DNA of 47,800 nt from Catajapyx aquilonaris (lineage: Eukaryota), in the NCBI GenBank assembly GCA_000934665.2, contig KZ538781.1, positions 1 to 47,800 on the forward strand, read 5' to 3'. Of this stretch, positions 16,870 to 47,413 are shown one piece after another; position 1 is the stretch's first letter; every line of letters begins with the position of its first letter. Below the pieces are notes generated by a model. The model made no database searches, was not told the origin of the DNA, and was given only the letters and a program-made list of their open reading frames with translations. Position numbers and translations under genes: made by a program.

Positions 16870-17026
16870 TCTTACTCACTAGATGTCATGGGAATGGGCC
16901 TACGGAGAGTGTAGAAAGAAATTCTTAACGTAGTCCCTACCCTTCCCGCTGGTCTTCGCTGGAAAATGGCGGCGCCGTAAGAGTTAAAGGGAAGAAATTG
17001 AAATTTGTGGGAGAATATAGGTACTA
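16870..17026 (+). promoter_or_regulatory. Probable CTCF promoter and non-coding exon 1, with a YY1/Pho-type motif
   Basis: AAAATGGCGGC at 16963-16973, a motif typical just downstream of a TSS. Candidate donors are GCC|gtaaga (16977) and TAG|gtacta (17021). The ATG exon begins at a splice acceptor, so an upstream exon is required. Confidence 0.5.
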
Positions 17027-20255: not shown

Positions 20256-20361
20256 ATGGAAACAGCTCATGATGGCGAAACTATAAATGCCATCCAAACT
20301 TACCTGGATACGTTTAACAAAGAGATTCAAAATGGCGATCCACCTAGTACTCCCTCGGAAG
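20256..20361 (+). CDS. CTCF: CTCF coding exon 1 (METAHDG...[13 protein letters not shown]...)
   Basis: Acceptor ttgcag ends at 20249, ATG at 20256, donor AAG|gtttgt; a 61-nt intron follows. Confidence 0.8.
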
Positions 20362-23300
20362 GTTTGTGTACATGAAGGAATATGAAATCATCACACTGAA
20401 GTCGGTACACTGACTTTTGCAGATTCTGCAATAGCAACGCAGAGCAGCGAGGGAAGTGAAGGCACTTTTTATGTCGACCAGGCCACAGGTCAATATTACT
20501 ACCAAGCTTCAGATGACCCGCAGCAGCAAGTTATATCTGTCCTTCCAGGTACTCTGTAGTGGCATGTAGTGATTTATTTTTAAAATAATGCGGGCTGTTG
20601 CACCCCACAGATTCCGGAGATGGCCAAGACAGTGGTGTGTCCATCACGGACAGTGACAGTGTCCAGGAGACGACGTTTGTGGCAATGCAGCCACAGGACA
20701 GTCAAGAGGAGGAATCAGGAATTGGATTGGACTCACAACAGGCAAGGACATTCAGTGTTTAGAAGGCTCATCATATTCCTATTCTCCTCTACTCTCGATT
20801 AATGGAGGTGGTCCAGAATCTAGAAATGCCCTGATTGCTATTCAGTTCCCTTCCTATCTTGCTGTTTTTAAATTCATTTTGTGCTTTTTTCACAGGAGGA
20901 GCACGAATCCAACAGTCAGGTGATTCTCAACACAGGGGATGCATATCAGACTGTTACGATTGTCCCCTCAGACACCAATCCCGGAGAGGTCAGTTATGTA
21001 CTAATAGTTCAGCAGCCTGATGACAAGGAAGGCGAGAAGAGTGATGACCAGGACCTCACAGTGTATGATTTTGATGAGGGTGAGGAAGGGGCTGCTCTGG
21101 TAAGTGCACTTGTTACTTTGATCAAGTACATCCATCAAGGATTTTGCTACAGTGAATTTCTTAATTTTCCAATACAGGATTCTGGTGAGGAAACTGATGA
21201 CAAATCGAAAATTGTGAAAATAATGCCCAAGAAGTCTCAGACAGTAACGCAAGCTCACATGTGTAATTATTGCAACTATACGAGCCCAAAACGCTACCTG
21301 CTGTCTCGCCATATGAAGTCTCACTCAGAGGAGAGGCCTCACAAGTGCAGTGTGTGTGAACGTGGTTTCAAGACACTAGCTTCCTTACAGAATCACGTAA
21401 ACACGCACACTGGCACAAAGCCTCATCGTTGCAAGTTCTGTGACAGTGCTTTCACAACTTCAGGTGTGTTGCATTTGAATGTGTCATTACCTTGTGTATA
21501 GTAATAATATACAGGTCAAATCTCGTTTTAGAAAATACCAATACAACAAAATTTCAATAGAAGGCAAAAAAATTTAAATTTTGGTTGGCCAGCCATAATG
21601 TATTTGTAATCCCGTTATTACGAAATGCATTACTATGAAATTTTCAGTACAACAAATACGAAAGGTAGTTTCCGAGCTAGTATTGAACCCGATATTACAA
21701 AATATGCACCAGTGCAATGCTCCACCACTGTCGAGCGATGAGCAAGCGTGCCATAAACGCCAAGTAAGCCAGCGACATGATCGCTGAAGCGTGGTCGGTG
21801 GTCGTGCATAATACCATTAACAATCGTGAAATGTTGGTGTAAATGTTGCATCACAGGGTCGGCAGTGTCTGTTTTCGGGAGTGACCAGGACACCGAAGAC
21901 TCAGATGACCCTGATGATGTGTGTGTGTGGAGGTCCGTCACTTCGGTTGTAGCGGCAGATGACGATATACAAGTGTGCCAGGAGTTGACAGTTTCAGACA
22001 TACTTGCAGGGGAAATAAAAAAATAACCGATCTCGATGTAACGAAATTCTGTTATTAGGAAAAATTTGCCTGGTCCCGCTGGTTTCATTATAATGAGATT
22101 TTACCTGTAGTAGAACATTTGTGCATTATTAGGCTAACTGTGTCTTTTAAAAGGTTGGTTAAGTAGAGTACAATGTGCAAGTTGCAACATAGCTGGGGAA
22201 GATGATCTGGCTCTTGCTGACCTAAGGCGAGGCCATTATTACCTGGCTGCCAGAGTCTCTCCTTCCCACCTCAGCATTTCTTTTTTGTTCTTATTCACAC
22301 ACTGCAAGGCTTGTTTCTTCTTATAGTCCACAGAACAATCCTATTCAATAGGTAACATGGCAGAAGGATGATAATTGAGTTTGGGACATTTTTGGTCCCC
22401 CAACTTTGGAAGTAGGGAGGTTTCACTGTTTTGCTCATACTTGATCATGTGGAAGCTAACATTTTCAATAATTTTTAGGTGAACTTGTGCGGCATGTGCG
22501 ATATAGACATACCCATGAGAAACCCCACCGCTGCACAGAATGTGATTATGCCAGTGTGGAACTAAGCAAGCTCAAGCGTCATATGCGCTGCCACACCGGA
22601 GAGCGCCCTTATCAGGTGAGTGCTCGTTTTATAGTTAATATGCTGTACTTGAGTTGATTCAAAGTTATTGCACATATTTTAAAATTCTAAGACCGTAACA
22701 TATATTATAAAGTGAAGATTTTTATTATGTTTTGAAGCTTCGGCCATAACAGTTTAAGTTGGTATACAGATAGTCCTGGTTTACAAACGACCTGACTTCC
22801 AGCAATCCGTACTTACAAACGGGCTCCCAAGGCTCCCCAGAAAGATCATTTATAATGATCCTTCCACTTTCAATCAGTTCTGCATACATTGACAGACACC
22901 AGGTTCAACATAAATACTGTATAATTAATAAATAAGTGGGAAACTATGTTCTTCCGCTCATGTAAACAAACACATGGTTCGATGCCATAAGATGGCCTGA
23001 GCCTGATACGGAGCAGCTGTCGTTCATGAGCATACATGAGCAGTTGCTCAGAGCTGTAGGTGTCATCAGCACTCTACAGTGTTGGACATAAATTGAGGCA
23101 TACTGCCAGCGACATTTTCCGAGCCGGCAGAAGAAGGAATCTTGCTCGCCTGGCTTGCAGTGTCCTTATCTTCGATTCCTTCTTCTGCCACTTCGGAAAA
23201 TGTCGCTAGCAATATGCCTCAATTTATGTCCATCACTGTACCACAGCACACTGTCCCATACTGGGCCAAAGTTTCCACAGAGGGCGAGATGAAAGACTCG

Positions 23301-26300
23301 TTGATGACTCCAGATCCGGTAGACATCCACAGCGTTATTCCATCACTGGAGCCGTTGAATGTTGCATGTAAGAAACTTGGCGATGGACAATGTGGGAGCT
23401 TGCTTTCAAGTGTGGGACAAGGCAGAGCACTACAGTGCTTAGGACTCGGAAGGACATGGGACTCAGGAAGTTGGCATCAAAATGGATTCCTCACCATCTC
23501 GCGGTGATGCAAAAGTAGCACCATTTTGCCCTTGCTGAGAACCATTTGGAATGCTATTCCAGTGCGGTCAGTGATGGTGTGTCTTAAGCAGATTCTGGCA
23601 ATGGCTGAGAAATTGCTCCATTCATAGTGCTCTGACTTGTCCCATACTTGAAAGCAAGCTCCCATTTTGTCCATTGCTGAGTTTCCTGCATGCAACGTTC
23701 CACAGCTCCAGAGCTGGAATGATGCTGTGGATGTCTACCAAATCTGGAGTGGTCGAAAAGCCGTTCCTCTCTCCTTCAGCTGAAAACATTAGCCCAGTGT
23801 GGAGGGTGTGCAATGGTAGAGCATTGCTGACACGTAGAGCTCTCACCAACTGCGTGTGGATGGCCCTGGTACAATTGCCGAGAATAACTGAGACTTGGAT
23901 GAATTAATACTGCTCCAAGCATGTCATGCTCAGGCCAACTGAGGGAGGTGGGGGGGTGGGGGGTCATGGTCCTCTTTTGTTTATTGGCCCCCCCTTGCAA
24001 TCTGTGTCATCTATATACCAGGCCAAGTAATTGTAATCGCCAGAGCTTCTAAACTTAGTAAAGGTCACCTCTGTACATGTTACTCTTTTAGAATGAAAAA
24101 TACATGCAATGACTTAATCCTCCTGATATCACATGTGCATTAAGCTGCCTTTACATACAAGAGATTGGATCAGCGATGTTATTGCTGCAACATTTCTTAT
24201 CAATTCTCTCGCATGTAAACTCGACTTTATAGACTAGCCCATCAGGGGGACAAAAATCACTGAGTTCTATGATCAAATGTTGTGATTGACATTATGAGTT
24301 TTATGACAATCTGAGCTTTGTGCTGCTAAACATGCAAATAACGAAGATCTGATAATGTAATTAAATGTAATTTGACTGTCTTCAAACTATTAATGAGCAA
24401 AAAAAACAACAACAACAGCACACACATGGTTGTAAAATGTCATCTTCAAAAAAGGTGTGCAGTGTTATTTTTGTTAAGAATTAGTTCTGTACAATGCCCA
24501 ACACATGCGAGATGTTTAATTAAAACTTTCTGCCCAGTGTCCGCACTGCACTTATGCAAGTCCAGACACCTTCAAGCTGAAGCGTCACCTGCGGATTCAC
24601 ACTGGGGAGAAGCCTTATGAGTGTGACATTTGTCATGCACGCTTCACTCAGTCCAACAGTTTGAAGGCACATAAGCTGATTCACACAGGCAACAAGCCTG
24701 TGTACCAATGTGAACTGTGCCCAACTACCTGCGGTCGCAAGACAGACCTTCGGATTCACGTTCAAAAATTGCACACGTCTGACAAGCCACTCAAGTGCAA
24801 GAGATGTGGCAAATCCTTTCCGGATAGATACACTTACAAGGTACGGATAATGGCTGTCCTGGGCATCTAGGCTTGCGTTTATTGTTTGGAATTTACCTAC
24901 CTTTAGGTGTACATTGGTACTGAAACTGTAATTTGTTCTGTTTCAGTTGCATAACAAGACTCATGAGGGTGAGAAGTGCTTCAAGTGTGACCTGTGCCCA
25001 TATGCATCCATTTCACAACGGCATTTGGAGTCCCACATGCTGATCCACACAGATCAAAAGCCATATCAGTGTGATCAGTGCGATCAGGTAACATGTTCCA
25101 TACCAATTGAGCAATCGTGGAAATGTGGAAAGGCAAAATCCGCTTCTCATAAGGTACTCTCTTTACATTTTGGGGAGGATTACTAATTAATGTTTAAAGA
25201 CCAGAGATGGGCATAATTCATTTTGAAATGACTTAATTCCATTCAGTTCCACCGAGAATTTGGCAGGTTGCGGCCCATTCAATTCAACTCGCCGTTCACT
25301 ACCATTCGCTCCTTGTTAATTCCATTCCATTAAATTGAATTCGTTACTGTTCAATTCAATTCACCATACAGTTCAATTGGGCTTTAAATTCTATTGGTTA
25401 TTAATATTTCCATTCGTCAATTTCATTCCATTAAACATTTACTTTCCATTTTTCTGAGATCTGTTGATTATCCCTGTGCAACCAATAACAGTTTTCTAGT
25501 TTCAGTGTTGAACATATTGATATTGATATTTATTCCCAGCGACAGGAAATATAGTGTTGAACATATATATTCCATACGTTGAATATTCTTAGTACCTTAT
25601 ACAGTCGATTCTTGAGCAGTTTGGACGAGTTATTTCCGTCATCCTTGAATAGTGTTCAAACAAACTAAATAAAATTAGAGTTTTTCATTGTCGCAATTAA
25701 TTTGCACAGTAGTGTAACTGCTGCAGTCGCCAACTCGGGAATAATTGGGCACCTGTATCGGGTGTAACAAGCTACACAAAAATACCCACTTTGAGTAATA
25801 CGGTCGAATCCCTCTATAACGAAAGAAAATTTGTGACTGTCCGAGGCCCCATATAAACCCATGTTAAAAATATCTGCTTTTAACGAAAGGATTTTCGGTT
25901 TCGGTTCTCATATAATGATCGCTCCTCCAGTCCCACCTCTCGGCCGAAAAAGGGCGGAAGTAGGCAAATTGGGCCATAAATCACCTTCTGTGTGTTAGGG
26001 ATTCAACCTTTTTTCACACATGCAGTACAAAAGTTGATAATTTGGGGTCCTAATAGAAGGGAAAGGATTCTCTGGGAGGGGGGGNNNNNNNNNNNNNNNN
26101 NNNNGGGGGGGGGGGCTGTCGCGCAGTGACTCAGCGCTGCCCACTGGATTTATTGCTAGCCCGTGGCCCCCCCAGGGAAGGAGGCAGGTGGTTAAAACCT
26201 GGGAAAATTCATCGGAAATTTGAGCAGCAAAACGAATCACATTTGGAACGGAATTCCCAGACGCTGACTTATCATATGTGCCTAAAAGGTGGGATGAGGG

Positions 26301-26513
26301 CGCGAGTGGAAAAGGAGAGGGGCCTGGCCTGCATCTGGTGCAGTCCTCCGGTGTTTTCTGTAGCTTATTGTTGTCGCGTTTGTACAGTGCTTTGTGAGAT
26401 AATCTAATTTAGCGCGGAAGAATTTTTAAACTATTCCCGCTACCAGGGCTTAATATAATGCCTAAATATCAGAAAAAAGTGAGGTTTAAACGCGTTTTTT
26501 ATATAACGAATTT

Positions 26514-26553
<40 letters not shown>

Positions 26554-29500
26554 TGAGGATAAGGTGATGTCTGAGGTGGGCAGGGGTGGGGGGTGGGACA
26601 GGTTGTTTTTAGGTTTATTCTCATGAGTTTTATTAGTTCATATGTTGGGTTAGCTTGCGTCTCCCTTCATCGCTGACTACCCCTCATAGGGAAATGTCGT
26701 GATGTTGTTGTTGTTGCATATAGCGAAAGAAAATTTGGTTCCCTTCAATTTCGTTATAGAGGGATTCGACTGTATTAGCAATAACTAAATATGACCCTGA
26801 TACTGGGAACACCCTGTACAGGGTGATTCTAAAGTCTGGACACATAGGTAGTAGTATTGTATTGTTGGTTGCCAGGATAACAATTGAGGCGCTCAGAGGA
26901 AAACCTGCATTTCCCAACAGGAGTTCATTTTAAGATAAGCTGCTTTTTGTGTTGCAAGAAAATAGTATTTTCCATTGCCGACCAATTTTACAAGTGGAAT
27001 AGGTGAGCTTTGGCATATTCCAATTCATTTGGCACTTCAGCACATGAAAGGTAGATGGCAGGAGAGTACAAAAGCACTACAATCTCAAAATCGGATGTCG
27101 GTTGGGATATGCCATTTTTCCTCTGAGCGCCTCAATTGTCAATCAAAAATACAACACAGTTACATACTGTATGTGTTCAGACCTTATGGTCACCCTGTAC
27201 ATTATGATTTATTTGTATATTTGAGACTATGTCATATCTAAGCTACAGTGAGTTGTTCATTAGACCTATCATTAATGTTGATTAACTGTTGCAGTCATTA
27301 TGTAATGATAAACTTTGGCCCATTTTCTGTTACCTGTAGGCTGAGTTGCACAACTGAAGATTTTACTGTAGAAGATTTTTCACTTATTCATCATTGCTAT
27401 CAAATCCATAAGCCAATAAAATCAACTCTGCTCAATCCCAATTGGGAACAATTTGTAAGTAGATTTATTTCCAAAACGTAATCAAGCCAGAGCTTAATTC
27501 AAGCCAATTCTGCAGGTCAAGGGAATTTATTGCAAGCAATTCAATTTCATTCGTCAATTTGGAATTAATTCCGAATTAATTCAGGTGCGAATTGAATTGT
27601 GACCATCACTGTTAAAGACCTCGGGAATATATCATGCACTGAGCCTAACATTTAACAAAGGGCATTTTTTAAAGTCTTTCAGGCAGAAGCAGCTTCTCAA
27701 GAGGCATCAGAATTTATACCACAACCCGAATTACATCCCCCCACTACCCAAGGAGAAGACTCATGAGTGTCCAGAATGTGGGAGGAGCTTTCGGCACAAG
27801 GGGAACTTGATACGTCATATGGCCATCCACGACCCTGACTCAGCAACCCAGGAGAAAGCCTTAGCACTTAAACTCGGTCGCCAAAAGAAAATCCAGATCA
27901 TTGATGGCCAGCAAGTTGAGGTAATGGCTGGTGAGGAAGAAGAGGAAGAGGACGAGCCAGACAGTGAGATGGTGGCCATGGAGAGTCAAGACGGTCAACA
28001 ATATGTTGTTCTTGAAGTCATCCAGCTGCAGGTAAATTAAAATACCTGGTTACAAAGTCTTCTTCAGGCTAGGGTTAGAAAATGCAGCCAATAATATGCC
28101 AAAATTTAGAAGCCATTAGGACAGTGGTTTCCAACCAGGGGGTCGTGAGCCTTTGTTCAATTTATTTTTTGCAATTTCTGAGTAAATTGAACAATTTTTG
28201 CGGCCGTACATTCATAAACATTTTTCTATTGCAGTGTAATCCTATGATTATTGTAGACTAAGAGGGGTAACAATGAATGTGCAGAAACTTGTTCAAGTAA
28301 ACAAAATTGTGGTGTGAGAGCACATTTTCTCAATCTTTCAATGAAATCTCACATAAATACAAATGTCCCTTTCACCCATTGAGGAAATGCCACATTTTCT
28401 CCAGCACACATCACAGTATTTCAACTTACCACATTTTGAATTAACTTACTGTATTTATGTGACTTGGCAAGAACTGCCCTGCAAAATGTCATGACTTGCA
28501 CCAAGGGCCTCAGGCATATTTGGAACAATCCTGTGAGGGAACCGCCCAAGAAAATACGGATGATCCAAGTACAAAAATTATAACATCTTGGCAGTAGTCA
28601 CTGAACCAATAGGGTACATGTAAAGGGATCAGTAGACAGTATTACAAACAGCCATGAAGAAAATGCACATATTTTAATCTAACATTTGAGTTCGTGTGAT
28701 GTGTGCACATGGTGCACCCTAAAAATGCAAGATTTTCTGGGAATCGTTATTTTTGAAAGTCACATTCTGAAATTTCCTCTTTTCCTGGTTTTTAACTTGT
28801 GTTCATACAACCGGCCTTAAGTATTAATTTCGTGATGCTTGTAAGTGTGAATCCCACTCTATCCTCTCTCCATATGCCCTAGGTTTTAAGGTGCACAAAT
28901 TTTACATAACAAAGTATTGGTTGGGGAAGGAGTAAAACTGTCCTTTCTTGTGGGGAATGATGCATTTGAATAATATTTCACTTCTCTTCTGACTCTTACG
29001 CATTTTCTTTCACATTGAAACGTATAACACTATGTTGCAGGATGGTGATGGGCAGGAACAAGCAGTTGCTGTCGTTACAAATAGTGATGGAGCTAGTACT
29101 GATGCAGTTGAACAGGCAGTAGCTGCTCTGCATCAGGATGAAGCAGAGGATGCTATGTTGGGTGAGCCACAGCATATTACTCCTGATCAAGGTATGCATC
29201 CTTAACTCTCCTTTTATGACAGTAGTTGATAGCAATAGGCTTCATTTGTTACAGATTTGACAGATGATGAGACTACGATTACTGTCCGTGGTCCCAAAGC
29301 TAGGATCTTGACCCAGAAGACTTCAGTTGCTATCCAGAAGCGGCTAGAGACGCAGAAGGATATGCAAAACTGCTTTGGATTTGACGTGAGTGTTTACCCC
29401 TTCAATCGAAAATTAGTTCAACTTTGCTGATCAAGATTTAAGTTTGCTGATAACTAGGGCCACTACATGGAACACATACATTCTATTATACTTCTATCCA

Positions 29501-32500
29501 TAACTTGTATCAAAATGTGAAGCTGGTGCCTGCCATTTCAATTGCTCCACAATATAGGCATTGGTCCTTTGGAATGCAAATAATTTATTTGATGCTTTTG
29601 CAAATTGGGCAATTTCATGGTAGGGAAGCAAAGTTGTGATTTAGTTACACAGTAATTCACTGGTTGATGTGTAGAAGACTTGCTGAAATAGAAGGCATGC
29701 AAATTTTTTTTGACAGCAGGCTTCTTTAAGTGGGGTTCAGATTGGTTCCCATTACTTCAGGAACATGTTGCTAGGTGCCTCAACTTATGATCATGCAATG
29801 TGGTCACCTTTTACTTCATCGCAGGTGCCAGATTTCTTTTAGAGCAAGGAGTATAGAGTTTGAGTTCATCTTGTCTCTCCAAAATCTTTATTAATTGAGG
29901 GGCTCTGTGCAACATAGTCCTATGCCACATCTGGTTCATTTCGAGGTAATGAAGGATGTAGATTTTGATTTCTGCAGCTAGACAGCAGATCCGATAAGAC
30001 TACTTCCCGTATACCCACACCATCTGTTGATGGACCCGGACAATTTTAACTCAGATGCTGTAGCATGTCTTTGGGGATCTATATATGGCCTTAACTCATT
30101 TCGTCAGAAAATGTGGCATAGGACTATGTTGCACAGAGCCCCTCAATTAACAACTGTAAGAGTAACCCTTACCTTTGAGTGGTCAGTGTCAGTTTGTGTT
30201 ACATCCTTGGCAAGGCTGAGTTTTTCCTGGTAGCTGAAACTTTTGGATTGGCCCAGGTTTTGGCACCCTAGATAACATATTTCCAAATGGATAAGTTACT
30301 TATAAGTAGAGTCTGGATTTTTAGGCGCGAAAAACTCCTGAAATAGGCACGAAAAAACCCTCAAACAGGGCCAAATGTGACAGAAAACCAAGAGAGACAC
30401 CAATTTTTTAGGCCTAAAGTATAAATATAAGGTCACAAACCAGAGCAAAAACTGAATACTGTATTGCCTCTTATAAAACATCATGCCAGTATAAAACGAG
30501 GTCGACCAGCCTGCCGGTATAACCCGGGGGTGGCTGGCATGCCGCAATAACCGAGTTCGATTTCCGTAATTTTGATCCTTGCCAAATTTTTTGGAATGTT
30601 TTTAGTACTGTACTAAATAATGTTACAATGAAAATGGGCGAATGTACAGGCTGTGAAAATATGCCAGTTCGGTTGCACAGTGCATATTTTAAAAATGTAG
30701 ACTGTGTGACCATCAATCCCATCATCAGCCTGCTTTGACAGGGCAACCCCCTGCTCCAACACACTGTTTAAATAGAGATTATTGCCAGACACTGCAATTG
30801 AAAAGAATATATGGAACGCAGGTGCCCTATACGGAAAATGTGCCTTTTCGATAGCCTTTACATGAATTCCGATTTTCAGGCAAATGTCAAGTTCTGAAAG
30901 AATAATGTAACCTATGTGAAAACCTCGCATTATACCGGCACACCTCGCCTTATACCAGCATGCCGGTATAGTCACCAGATCACGCATTTCTAAAAACTGG
31001 TCAACCTCGGCTACACTGGCATGCCGCTTATGAGAGGTAATACGGTAACAACGATAAAATGACAGAAAATCACAAAACTTGGGCAAAACACACCAAGTGT
31101 AAGCAAGTGTCACTTGCTCTGGACTCGACCACTTATAGCCCGTTTCCACTTGCACAGTGTGTTAGAAAATATTTTTCTATATTTTCATTATTGAAACTAA
31201 TTGAAGACCTCAGGAGAAAAAAACGATCAAGGTCCACCTCAGGTGAAACTGAGATAATCCTATTTTAAATTTCCTAGGCCCATAAGGCTGTATTGTAAAT
31301 CCCATTTTCAGGGCCTTCCATAGTGACCTATGATTATTACTCCACAACCATGACCAAACCATCATCTTCTACAATAGGGAAAGTATCTTCTGAGATATAT
31401 GTGACTCATTTTTGACAAAAAGTGGACCTTGATTGTTCTTCCCCCAAGGTCTTCAATTACTTCTGAACGATTTTGGTCCTTTCAGGAGCACAAATAATAC
31501 TCTGCAAAAAAACGAACATGCCTATGAAGGAATAGGTCCAGAATAGGCCCAAGAAGTCCCGAATTTGCTTCAAAAAGACCAAAACCTATCCCAAAAAAGG
31601 CCAAATTGGCATGAATAGACGAACAAAGCCAGAAAATCCAAAATAGTTCCCAAAACCATGAAATAGGGAATTTTAGCCACTATAAAGCCTGTTTCACAAA
31701 AAAAGACGCGGCGTTCCGTCGCCGCGTTTCAACGCCAGCTGTGAAACGCCAAGGCAATAGGCGGTGGATCGCCACAGAGGAAAACGCTGCTGCAATCCAC
31801 AAAAACAATCTGTCGTTCGGCGCAAGTGCAGAGCCATCTCGGAAAGATAACGAAACTAGCCACTATAGCCACCACTAGTCAGTAGGAGACCAAGGTGGCA
31901 CAAGGGGACAATACGGGGCACAGGCGGGCGGGACGAGAGCTGCGGAGAGAGGATACGGGGTGGACGGTGTGGCAGGGGTGCGGGCGGGGCAAAGCACGGG
32001 GCAAAGGACGGCCACGGGGCCAAGGACGGGCATGCGGGCGGACATACAGGATGGACGGTGAGGAAAGAGGGGAAAATAAATATGTCTGCCTCGACCAGAA
32101 AGTCGGGTTGGGGTCTTGGGGAGGGAGGGAGGGAGGGAAGTCACATGACTTCATGGTCCCTCTTCCCATTGGCAGTCGCCGGGCGTCAAAACGCAGATAT
32201 TCAGGCCAGCAGTATCCTGCGTTGGAGCTGTTTGCCGCGGCGACAGACAGAATCGCGCATCAAAATTTTATGTGAATTGGCTTGACGCGCGCGTCGTACA
32301 GCCTGGGCGGTGAAACACCGCGTCTTTTTTTTGTGAAACAGGCTTAAAACCTACATTTTCCACATCCTGCACTTATGAAATGGATAGATCTCTTCGCGAA
32401 ACCATCCCAACTGTAATGGAACTAAATATGTATTTGCCTAAAAATCCGGACTTTGCTTATAAGTATGATAGTTGTAAATAAAGTTGTGGCAACATGTGTA

Positions 32501-33220
32501 CAAAATGTAAACCAGATTACTTAACCATGTCTGCACAATTACATTCCTTTGGTGTGATGTGCCATTTTTTGCACCATTTTCCACACTTGTGGGAGCCACT
32601 GGATTCTGTCATCAGTGTTTCTTGTTTATATCAGCAAAAATTTGGTCTTTTGCTTGAAGATCTTCTCACACATCACCAAACTGCATGAAAAGAGTTGACA
32701 GTCCAGTATGGAAGTGACTATCACTAGACTTCCCAAAGGTCACAATAAATGCCACTTGCAGTTTTACCTTGTACAACCTGGATTTTGATCCAGGAACTTG
32801 TACCAATTTGTGAAAATAGTTGAGACCATTGCACACTGAGACGTAGATGACCTCACCATACAAGGTCACTAGTTAGAATGGGCTGTGTGAACGTCTGAGC
32901 ATGCATAATGGATACAACCAGCTTCTCTTCCTCTCAACAGTAACTTTTGAGTTACCAAATTCTGCATTTCTTGACAGTGTTGCTGCTGATTTATTTACAA
33001 CCTTTGTATATGGCAAATGCAGTCACCATGTCATTATATGTCCTGCATTCACTACCAATGTTGAAACTTTGAGTGTTACCTGAGAGAAAATTAATTCTCT
33101 CCCTGAAATTATTGTGCTTATCAGGAAGAAGAAGAGGACGATGGTGATGACATGCATGAATCCCACAGTGAAGCAGCAGCCAAGACAGCCATCCAGCTTC
33201 TTGAAGCAATTGATCAGTAA
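20256..33220 (+). CDS. CTCF: CCCTC-binding factor (CTCF), 11 C2H2 zinc fingers, about 722 aa; join(20256-20361,20423-20548,20611-20741,20896-21099,21178-21463,22479-22615,24538-24840,24947-25087,27675-28031,29041-29191,29255-29385,33125-33220)
   Basis: Manual splicing gives 2169 nt with consistent phases and no internal stop. There are eleven tandem fingers with CTCF-diagnostic sequences ([56 protein letters not shown]). VYDFDE lies upstream of ZF1. Confidence 0.95.
20423..20548 (+). CDS. CTCF: CTCF coding exon 2 ([15 protein letters not shown])
   Basis: ttttgcag| acceptor and CAG|gtactc donor; phase 1-1; open frame. Confidence 0.85.
20611..20741 (+). CDS. CTCF: CTCF coding exon 3 (acidic; probable GC donor)
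   Basis: ccacag| acceptor. An in-frame TAG at 20759-20761 forces an earlier donor, and CAG|gcaagg is in phase 0 with the next exon. Confidence 0.75.
20896..21099 (+). CDS. CTCF: CTCF coding exon 4 (contains VYDFDE)
   Basis: ttttttcacag| acceptor and CTG|gtaagt donor; lies within ORF 20881..21501. Confidence 0.9.
21178..21463 (+). CDS. CTCF: CTCF coding exon 5 (ZF1, ZF2, start of ZF3)
   Basis: aatacag| acceptor and CAG|gtgtgt donor; C2H2 fingers. Confidence 0.95.
21512..22107 (+). mobile_element. pogo/Tigger-type deletion derivative in a CTCF intron
   Basis: TA|CAGGTCAAATCTC...GAGATTTTACCTG|TA; remnant TIVKCWCKC...[17 protein letters not shown] resembles a Tigger C-terminus. Confidence 0.8.
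22479..22615 (+). CDS. CTCF: CTCF coding exon 6 (end of ZF3, ZF4)
   Basis: tttttag| [46 protein letters not shown] |gtgagt; not in the ORF track. Confidence 0.95.
23010..23905. mobile_element. Inverted pair of decayed mariner transposase 5' halves
   Basis: The + arm has [14 protein letters not shown] and [11 protein letters not shown] (WVPHEL-like); 23620-23905 is its inverted homologue. Termini not resolved. Confidence 0.7.
23077..23238. mobile_element. Tc1-type palindromic MITE nested in the mariner remnant
   Basis: TA|CAGTG...CACTG|TA; about 65-bp arms. Confidence 0.8.
24538..24840 (+). CDS. CTCF: CTCF coding exon 7 (ZF5-ZF7, most of ZF8)
   Basis: gcccag| [17 protein letters not shown]...FPDRYTYK |gtacgg; 303 nt. 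Confidence 0.95.
24947..25087 (+). CDS. CTCF: CTCF coding exon 8 (end of ZF8, ZF9, start of ZF10)
   Basis: tttcag| [17 protein letters not shown]...YQCDQCDQ |gtaaca. Confidence 0.95.
25801..26772. mobile_element. pogo/Tigger-type MITE nested in the hAT element
   Basis: TA|CGGTCGAATCCCTCTATAACGAA...TTCGTTATAGAGGGATTCGACTG|TA; contains an N gap at 26085-26103. Confidence 0.85.
26551..26716 (+). mobile_element. 3' end of the same RTE LINE family, next to (TA)n at 26517-26550
   Basis: Reverse complement of about 2280-2435, with a (TTG)n tail. Confidence 0.85.
26819..27197. mobile_element. Tc1/mariner-type long-arm MITE
   Basis: TA|CAGGGTGA...TCACCCTG|TA; partial copy at about 33905-33960. Confidence 0.75.
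27675..28031 (+). CDS. CTCF: CTCF coding exon 9 (end of ZF10, ZF11, start of C-terminal region)
   Basis: ttttttaaag| [16 protein letters not shown]...[23 protein letters not shown]...EVIQLQ |gtaaat. Confidence 0.92.
29041..29191 (+). CDS. CTCF: CTCF coding exon 10
   Basis: tgttgcag| [12 protein letters not shown]...TPDQ |gtatgc; phase 0-1. Confidence 0.85.
29255..29385 (+). CDS. CTCF: CTCF coding exon 11 (ends DMQNCFGFD)
   Basis: gttacag| acceptor after a 63-nt intron; GAC|gtgagt donor; phase 1-0. Confidence 0.85.
29897..30144. mobile_element. Sola-like MITE (GAG...CTC termini)
   Basis: Perfect TIR of about 33 bp (GAGGGGCTCTGTGCAACATAGTCCTATGCCACAT); AATT on both flanks. Confidence 0.8.
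30459..31045. mobile_element. pogo-type MITE
   Basis: TA|CTGTATTGCCTCTTATAA...TTATGAGAGGTAATACGG|TA; repeated gccggtata motifs. Confidence 0.75.
31203..31454. mobile_element. Sola-like MITE copy 2
   Basis: Same TIRs as copy 1; TSD AATT. Confidence 0.85.
31686..32344. mobile_element. PIF/Harbinger-like MITE, GC-rich
   Basis: TAA|AGCCTGTTTCACAAAAAAAGACGCGG...CCGCGTCTTTTTTTTGTGAAACAGGCT|TAA. Confidence 0.85.
33125..33220 (+). CDS. CTCF: CTCF terminal coding exon (EEEEDDGDD...IQLLEAIDQ*)
   Basis: gcttatcag| acceptor in phase 0; acidic tail; TAA at 33218-33220. Confidence 0.75.
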   Translation, partial: EEEEDDGDDMHESHSEAAAKTAIQLLEAIDQ

Positions 33221-33880
33221 TGAAATACTTTGAAGTGAAATTGGACTGAAGTGAGGAGACAGCAGAAAGCCTTCAGACCATTTCAAAAGTTGACCTACAG
33301 TTACCTGATCCGTGAAGTGATCGTCAGAGTGAAGTTTGGCAGTCAGTGGGGTACAGCTTCCTGGTGTTTGTTCATTAAGGTGGTTGCGTATGTACAAGAT
33401 AGATGATCCAAGTAGTAACCTCATTTACATTTTTGATTAGCATGTTATTACGATTAAGTCCTTTTTTGTGAAGCCATGTTTAGGTTTACAAGTACCTTTT
33501 CAATACCATTTGCAAGTAGGAATTTTAAAAGCTATACAAAACACATGTTTTATGTGTATGTAATTCAAGAAGGAATGCTGCCAGAAAGTTGATCCTGATT
33601 TTTTATTGACCACTCTTATTCCATGGGCAATATCCATGCAAGAGAAACCTGTCCTCTGAATGAAATTCAAATGAACCTTGGTTTGGGATGTTATGAGGGG
33701 CTTAAAGGGATCCACTAAAACAGGCTTTCAGTGTGTCGTTACTAGCAGATAGGGATGCACATGTTCTCCAAGTCCTTGTCTTTAGTTGATCTGGATGGCT
33801 GTGGTAGTTAGAGTTGCAGCAGACAAGAGAATCACTAGCTGTGGTTACAAGTATTGAGGGACTCCATGAGACAGTGGAAA

Positions 33881-33886
33881 AATAAA
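33881..33886 (+). terminator. Candidate CTCF polyadenylation signal AATAAA
   Basis: AATAAA about 660 nt after the stop, followed by a T-rich stretch. Confidence 0.35.
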
Positions 33887-33982
33887 CATTCAGTATTTTT
33901 TTATGCAGGGTGACCGTGAAGTCTGGACACATAGGTAATTGAATTGTATTGTTGGTTGTCAGTTGTGCCAACTGGCGGGTTG

Positions 33983-46470: not shown

Positions 46471-47413
46471 TCAACACCAGCTGCATACAAACTTTGCAGG
46501 GCCTTCAACCTTCACAAGAATTTCGTTCCTCTTAGTCTTATGAAACTTAGATTTTTCTTTGTTCTCCCTTTCTAAGTCATGCTTCTTTAGACGCCTCGTT
46601 TCTGCGGCCTGCTTCAAACCATGAACCACTACCACTAGATTCATCTGATGGCGTCTGATTCGCTCTTCCTCACGGTAAACCCCAGGGTTTGCCTGCCCTC
46701 TGCAAGCCCTGGTCATCTGAGTTTCCCGTTCTTCCAGGATCAGCTGCATAAAGCAGGCTTCTTGTTGCATCTTATGCACCAATTCCCGCACATACGTTTC
46801 ATGCACATGCAGAAGGCTCTCCTGAAAATGTTGCTCTACGACGATCATCTCATGCTGGACGTCTAGAAGCTGGTGAATTTCAGTCAGATCCTGAGAATCT
46901 AGTGTTGAGTTCACCTCAATGACTGTCATAAGATGGCTCATCATCCTCTCCAGTTTGTATCTCTCTTTCTGCAAACAAAAGGTTTGTGAATACAAATAAA
47001 GGTGCGCAGACCAAAATTTCACACATCCCTGGAATGAGAAACCTTCAAATAATGCGTTCTACCTGCAAGCAAGATGCTGCATTCTGACATCGCCCCTTCG
47101 TCACTGCATCCTGCAGCTTTCCCAGCAGGTCTTCTGCTCTTTTTTTCATTTTCAAATCATTGTTTACAGCCTGCTGCCATAAAATATGTTGTTCCGGCGT
47201 GAAAGCCTGCTGGGCGGCCTGTAGTTCTTCCATTTTCTTTAAACGGTATGGTCGGATATCTTCGTGCCTCATTAACGCCACTTGCATGCCATCTCTCTCC
47301 TCCTTAAAAACCTTCCAGGCTAGGTATTCAATCTGTGCAATGCTCTTGCTGCACTGGCGGTAGAGTCCTTCCACTCTGTCTGCCAGTTCCATACGTGGAT
47401 CTTCCATGCTCAT
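46471..47413 (-). CDS. Uncharacterised coiled-coil-like protein, join(complement 47063-47413, 46471-46968), about 282 aa
   Basis: Two adjacent ORFs join in phase 0 across a 94-nt intron (CAG|gtagaa ... ttttgtttgcag|AAA). The ATG context is ACTACCATG with an upstream in-frame stop and an acceptor at 47470. Composition is E/Q/K/R/L-rich and helical. The true 3' end is uncertain (possible donor near 46488). Confidence 0.65.

Follow-up and report, generated by a model that had tools for sequence, protein, structure and literature searches.

An ancient and apparently undescribed FGF-type motif in the C-terminal tail of protostome CTCF, a possible second docking site for cohesin

Three described motifs of the cohesin system frame the element reported here, a C-F-G-F-D motif near the C-terminus of the CTCF protein of Catajapyx aquilonaris, whose gene lies on contig KZ538781.1 of assembly GCA_000934665.2 (the window is the whole stretch analysed, positions 1 to 47,800 of the forward strand, 47,800 nucleotides). 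What is said below of published work covers part of each source cited. The N-terminal YxF motif of CTCF itself, which docks on SA2-SCC1 (human Y226/F228, PDB 6QNX) and in the fly binds SA-Vtd (Y248/F250, PMC7880997), resembles the new motif in being an aromatic-x-Phe core followed by acidic residues in the same protein, with a small hydrophobic residue at position -1 and D-[ML] a few residues upstream. The new motif differs in its C-terminal place, its middle glycine, its invariant cysteine and the helix predicted before it, lies about 150 rather than about 40 residues from the zinc fingers, is missing from every mollusc record examined and from the fish one, and is a putative docking site as judged from sequence. 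With the FGF motifs of WAPL (human F73GF75, F429GF431 and F453GF455; PMC11331136) it shares an FGF core in a disordered region, whereas it belongs to a sequence-specific DNA-binding protein, is present in single copy and has an upstream helix and a cysteine. The nearest letter-for-letter match is the C-F-G-F-[DE] of Sororin (human RRSCFGFEGLL, PMC11331136; consensus in PMC10656103), a motif whose partner is disputed; unlike Sororin, CTCF has no neighbouring YSR or Sororin box and carries a long acidic tract after the core.

In the Catajapyx gene the motif closes the penultimate coding exon, and the Glu/Asp-rich start of exon 12 (33125) joins it in phase 0. The features concerned are as follows.

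29371..29385, forward strand: C-F-G-F-D core, residues 687-691, the final five codons of exon 11.
29314..29370, forward strand: predicted basic helix ending K-D-M-Q-N right before CFGFD (AlphaFold2 on the termite orthologue P0017).
29386..33124, forward strand: phase-0 last intron of 3739 nt, GT..AG, which contains nested inverted-repeat elements.
33125..33220, forward strand: terminal coding exon, an acidic tract followed by a short amphipathic helix; stop TAA at 33218-33220.
21061..21078, forward strand: N-terminal YxF motif VYDFDE, residues 177-182, conserved in homologues.

A first-pass annotation of this DNA had placed two motifs in the spliced protein, the N-terminal VYDF(DE) and the C-terminal CFGFD, and both are there. 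It had further described the second motif as completed across the last splice junction, which holds for the acidic flank, added by splicing, and not for the FGFD core, which lies wholly within exon 11. The AlphaFold2 model of termite P0017, of low overall confidence (predicted template modelling score 0.29), has a helix at residues 682-700 (predicted local distance difference test ~70) that ends at the motif cysteine, coil over FGF and the acidic tract, and then a short terminal helix. The first motif phenylalanine stands 158 residues from finger 11 here, and 114-371 residues (median 146) in 134 full finger arrays. The [YF]-x-F core thus falls in a region modelled as disordered, as in the class of motifs that bind the conserved essential surface of SA-RAD21, and the sequence also fits the [S/T/C]-F-G-F-[DE] pattern of Sororin- and WAPL-type FGF motifs. 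No Pfam family covers the motif exon in a scan of the termite orthologue, and the tail of P0506, searched against the ESM Atlas, had no usable match.

The conservation of this element is what sets it apart. The arrangement of helix, D-M-x-x-C-F-G-F and acidic tract recurs among homologues, with the motif present in 109 of the 120 listed from 384 found; the other 11 have tails of 82-146 residues, most of which look by eye truncated or like intron read-through. In a profile of the 168 motif bearers pooled from all searches, D or E stands at position -5 in 98%, M, V, R or L at -4 and C at -1 in 96%, followed by F (99%), G (100%) and F (100%), and then by D (74%), N (13%) or K (8%); 153 of the 168 have four or more acidic residues among the six that follow FGF. 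An alignment of 60 rows picked among motif bearers contains no column at residues 630-695 (0 of 66) that reaches 90% identity, while C-F-G-F do. Core and acidic flank are both conserved in evolution, a trait of motifs that bind the conserved essential surface. [FY]xF[DE] arose in 0.5% of 100,000 shuffles of the 202-residue CTCF tail, and FGF[DE] is found in 0 of 120 SA proteins and in three of 106 zinc-finger proteins that do not contain two CTCF signature words, all three of which look like divergent CTCFs with the motif. These data indicate that the C-terminal element is a real, ancient and apparently undescribed FGF-type motif of protostome CTCF.

Counted over records named directly or through their cluster, the motif is present in 21 of 23 chelicerates (one of the two misses is a partial model and the other a fused one), in the one millipede, in all five Diptera, Drosophila rubida included, in all three Lepidoptera, and in both the annelid Paralvinella and the brachiopod Lingula. 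One of two priapulid sequences bears it: the named Priapulus model has none, and its sister sequence P0182 has AFGFD. A quick tree, in which the long branches of fish and nematodes were misplaced, served only to set P0182 beside Priapulus. The motif is missing from both nematode records and from the single fish record, the sole vertebrate examined, and from four annelid-like proteins, three of which look truncated and one of which (P0502) looks complete. Among the named hits, the deuterostomes included no echinoderm, hemichordate or amphioxus CTCF. From this pattern of presence and absence the motif is, on sequence grounds, at least as old as the ancestor of protostomes, with more than one later loss. 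The similar CFGFD ends that the first-pass annotation ascribed to other arthropod CTCFs are confirmed by alignment and taxon counts, with their acidic flank and far beyond the arthropods. Four second paralogues of spiders (P0184, P0556, P0557 and P0563) have a decayed N-terminal YxF (FDL, YDM, FNL and FNL) and an intact CFGF, which argues for separate selection on the tail motif.

That the protein is a CTCF is indicated by its 11 C2H2 fingers of CTCF type, by best matches that are named CTCFs (closest are those of cockroach, cricket, dragonfly and termite, with 80-83% identity over one exon, which places the organism among insects or close hexapods) and by a spacing of 40 residues from the N-terminal tyrosine to finger 1. 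The genome holds one CTCF match at E<=1e-25, consistent with a single copy. Evidence of splicing comes from the contigs of one public run, X1, whose kind is unrecorded. One contig of 1452 nt, with no differing letter, has the joints 28031/29041, 29191/29255 and 29385/33125 (each GT..AG) and reaches 33935; these joints show that it is spliced. The junction from 29385 to 33125 that the earlier annotation proposed is thus seen in a spliced contig, with the acidic terminal exon. Junctions 5' of 28031/29041 are predictions of the gene model.

20256..33220, forward strand: CTCF coding span, 12 exons, 722 amino acids, a single open frame; an extra 5' exon is possible.
20256-20361, 20423-20548, 20611-20741, 20896-21099, 21178-21463 and 22479-22615, forward strand: CTCF exons 1-6, predicted.
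24538-24840, 24947-25087, 27675-28031, 29041-29191, 29255-29385 and 33125-33220, forward strand: CTCF exons 7-12, the last three junctions present in the contig.
21261..27831 (approximate), forward strand: exons for the array of 11 C2H2 fingers (residues 218-530; gene model, and Pfam on the termite orthologue).
33221..33935, forward strand: 3' untranslated region, within the spliced contig, with AATAAA at 33881.

As to function, we tentatively favour, with somewhat less than even confidence, the view that protostome CTCF carries an ancient short linear motif for docking on cohesin, with the SA-RAD21 pocket as the likeliest site. Its two phenylalanines would enter the conserved essential surface in the manner of WAPL F73-G-F75, and its acidic flank would contact the basic rim. 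Tethered to the fingers by some 150 disordered residues, it could offer DNA-bound CTCF a second, direction-blind contact with cohesin, competing with WAPL and overlapping in function with the N-terminal YDF. The SA half of the receptor pocket is intact in the same genome: SA retains K290, Y297, R298, D326, K330 and W334 together with the F367/F371 word. RAD21 keeps L341. Human WAPL F73GF75 binds SA2-SCC1 through W334, F367, F371, I337 and L341 and competes with SGO1 (PMC11331136), which agrees with the premise of the earlier annotation that acidic-flanked WAPL FGF motifs use this surface, and the same paper cites a Sororin CFGFE peptide as a binder of SA2-SCC1. A complex prediction of termite SA 185-960 with the RAD21 segment of this genome and termite CTCF tail 684-727, run without alignments on a tool unproven on peptides, returned a score of 0.01 and a mark of 0.34, and weighs neither way. 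The canonical SA gene is on contig C309; besides it, three other contigs (G000:C9846, C8268 and C2611) match the stromalin conserved domain weakly.

Deletions at both ends of fly CTCF have been described. Loss of residues 171-287, which removes the N-terminal motif, leaves a protein that restores mainly wild type (PMC10983669), and loss of 774-818 leaves one that rescues lethality and most homeotic defects, with A5 depigmented in 50% versus 10% of males and chromatin occupancy slightly reduced (PMC4528719). Judging by the D. rubida sequence, where the motif phenylalanine lies 39 residues from the end, the motif probably sits near D. melanogaster residue 780, and the 774-818 deletion would remove it. 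The near-wild-type outcome of each single deletion fits redundancy of the two motifs and fits equally well two dispensable ones. No fly double mutant of both CTCF ends was found in the parts of the literature covered.

A number of points weigh against docking on SA-RAD21. Full-length Sororin, whose CFGFE is the nearest match, showed no binding to SA2-SCC1, either in vitro or in cells (PMC11331136), and AlphaFold work places FGF motifs on PDS5 or in the WAPL cleft and not on SA (PMC10656103). At the positions of human S334 and I337 the RAD21 of this genome has G and M; in chelicerates the residue at motif position +3 is N or K; and for the helix right before the aromatic pair no counterpart is described for the CTCF and SGO1 peptides in the sources covered. 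The motif is missing from all 22 mollusc records (several of them isoforms or close relatives), although mollusc genomes need cohesin. As for the fly, cohesin is reported not to be specifically co-localised with CTCF, the removal of the motif by the 774-818 deletion is an estimate from another species, and dispensability of both motifs would accord with the mild phenotypes.

The first-pass annotation went further and pictured an orientation-independent barrier, a CTCF able to stop cohesin from either side. One part of that idea agrees with what is reported, in that fly boundaries show very weak directionality at best (PMC7645679), as a direction-blind protein would. The barrier part fares poorly: fly CTCF anchors few or no loops and few boundaries, and invertebrate CTCFs fail to rescue loops in human cells (preprint 2026.10.19.760054), a failure that chimeras trace largely to the N-terminal region and DNA binding (preprints 2026.10.19.760054 and.759930). 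The C-terminal region of human CTCF, for its part, left loop extrusion in vitro unaffected (preprint 2025.01.26.634934). With 158 residues to finger 11 against 40 from YDF to finger 1, the geometry is that of a long tether and not of a mirror image, and in our analysis the motif makes a more plausible second tether than it does a barrier in mirror image.

The true partner might have nothing to do with cohesin (a cofactor of transcription or chromatin, or a transport receptor), with the FGF likeness a convergent aromatic-acidic motif. The invariant cysteine and the upstream helix with its D-M would then be the extra features of such a site, invertebrate CTCF anchors loops weakly, and deletion of 774-818 from fly CTCF abolishes its co-precipitation with CP190 in S2 extracts and removes part of the CP190 occupancy (PMC4528719). 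CP190 itself was rejected as the motif's partner: its direct site on CTCF maps upstream, to fly residues 698-771 or 715-733 (preprint 2021.05.31.446447), the motif would lie outside 698-771, and CP190 is reported only in Pancrustacea (PMC4208683), whereas the motif is found in chelicerates, an annelid and a brachiopod. We hold a non-cohesin partner to be unlikely overall, while giving it appreciable weight. A condensin CR1 motif was also considered and rejected, as its consensus does not fit (PMC11791182).

Of similar, doubtful standing is a Sororin-like role, in which the motif would bind the C-terminal trough of PDS5 (WEST) or the C-terminal cleft of WAPL and shield cohesin at CTCF sites from release, doing the job of the N-terminal PDS5-binding KTYQR of jawed vertebrates. 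CFGFD/E fits the Sororin consensus [S/T]-hydrophobic-FGFExL; AlphaFold places the central WAPL FGF in WEST and that of Sororin both there and in the WAPL cleft, and the same PDS5 trough takes an ESCO1 motif that is partly helical (all PMC10656103). KTYQR is found only in jawed vertebrates (preprint 2026.10.19.760054), which leaves invertebrate CTCF without a known contact to PDS5, and PDS5 and WAPL genes are both found in this genome. Against such a role, binding of FGF motifs in WEST is based on prediction, the Sororin FGF is dispensable for PDS5 binding in cells (PMC11331136), and the YSR-like neighbour expected about 10 residues upstream in a Sororin-type motif has no conserved counterpart in our profile from -12 to -1. 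No Sororin C-terminal domain was found in the genome, whose assembly is incomplete. The large N-terminal exon of WAPL (L021, G000:C13:194670-196463, minus strand) encodes DPFMFDAD and no FGF in the stretch read.

The last intron had been suggested as a switch, with intronic polyadenylation or read-through dropping the acidic flank and turning the motif off. The intron does follow FGFD directly, and its position looks shared with other arthropods, in that just behind the motif six database models either stop or read through. We regard a switch as very improbable all the same, and the polyadenylation it supposes finds no support: the only contig over exon 11 is spliced (though contigs lose rare forms), the first 2.6 kb of the intron contain no AATAAA or ATTAAA, the first standing at 32075, and read-through would retain CFGFD. 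Within the intron, nested inverted-repeat elements resembling miniature inverted-repeat transposable elements lie at 29888-30153, 30297-32465 and 31685-32345; many X1 contigs map to them, so they are repeated. Least credible of all, a neutral chance match in a disordered tail could appeal to the commonness of three-residue motifs and to the mildness of the fly deletion that probably covers the motif, but the motif is nearly invariant in arthropods and in two spiralian phyla, within a tail that is otherwise unalignable, which already contradicts this reading and makes a chance origin untenable.

Other features of the protein and of the window were seen alongside. A short terminal amphipathic helix (33185-33217) is common to many insects, chelicerates and one millipede, and the C-terminal end of the one fish protein loosely resembles it. 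Further conserved hydrophobic blocks occur in both tails, at the approximate positions 20468-20510, 20940-21015, 27880-27920 and 27995-28031 (YFVDQ-type, [28 protein letters not shown]). Lingula, Priapulus and Octopus share the VTIVP..SYVLIV block, and AlphaFold2 renders two of the tail blocks as short strands. Half of the mollusc records (11/22) also lack an N-terminal [FY]-[DEN]-F, which contradicts statements that YxF is present in all bilaterians. Intron 3 (20742-20895) is predicted to need a GC donor (a GC-AG intron), with the frame kept. Upstream of the gene, 16963-16984 holds what we take to be a YY1-like word with an ATG at 16966 inside it, and a strong GTAAGA donor follows 3' of that ATG at 16977; if joined to 20250, this donor would give an out-of-frame upstream open reading frame overlapping the CTCF start. 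On the minus strand, an open stretch of 195 codons at 46474-47058, rich in Glu, Lys, Arg and Leu, is probably an exon of a neighbouring coiled-coil gene.

No description of a C-terminal FGF motif in CTCF was found in the titles, abstracts and passages covered by full-text searches, which did not extend to figures, supplements, subscription papers or the 2020 CTCF-SA2-SCC1 structure paper, where an alignment could show it; nor, when the strings CFGFD and CFGFE were sought together with CTCF, was CFGFD found in the full texts covered. The main text of preprints 2026.10.19.760054 and.759930 and of PMC7880997 contains no occurrence of FGF, and the motif is not described in the parts covered of PMC11148194, PMC10279526 and PMC10003631. 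As recently as 2024, conservation of CTCF was said to be limited to YxF and five fingers (PMC10983669). One 2026 preprint screened the N-terminal region and one finger interface, and invertebrate CTCF, with a cohesin-binding YxF yet no directional loops, has been called an "evolutionary enigma" (preprint 2026.10.19.760054).

That arthropods, an annelid and a brachiopod share a near-invariant second FGF motif is a variable so far missing from the debate on invertebrate CTCF loops, and it offers a reason for the mild effect of deleting the N-terminal motif in the fly. Should the partner not be cohesin, the motif would still mark an old, unrecognised interaction of CTCF. A more speculative extension, which we consider improbable as it stands, is that ancestral CTCF was two-handed, with cohesin docking motifs flanking the fingers; in arthropods, annelids and brachiopods the tethered C-terminal one would blur polarity, and the lack of it in vertebrates would have been one of the steps towards the convergent-site rule. 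If that were true, grafting the motif onto human CTCF would relax orientation dependence, and a fly CTCF without both motifs would expose a cohesin-dependent function that is masked in the single deletions.

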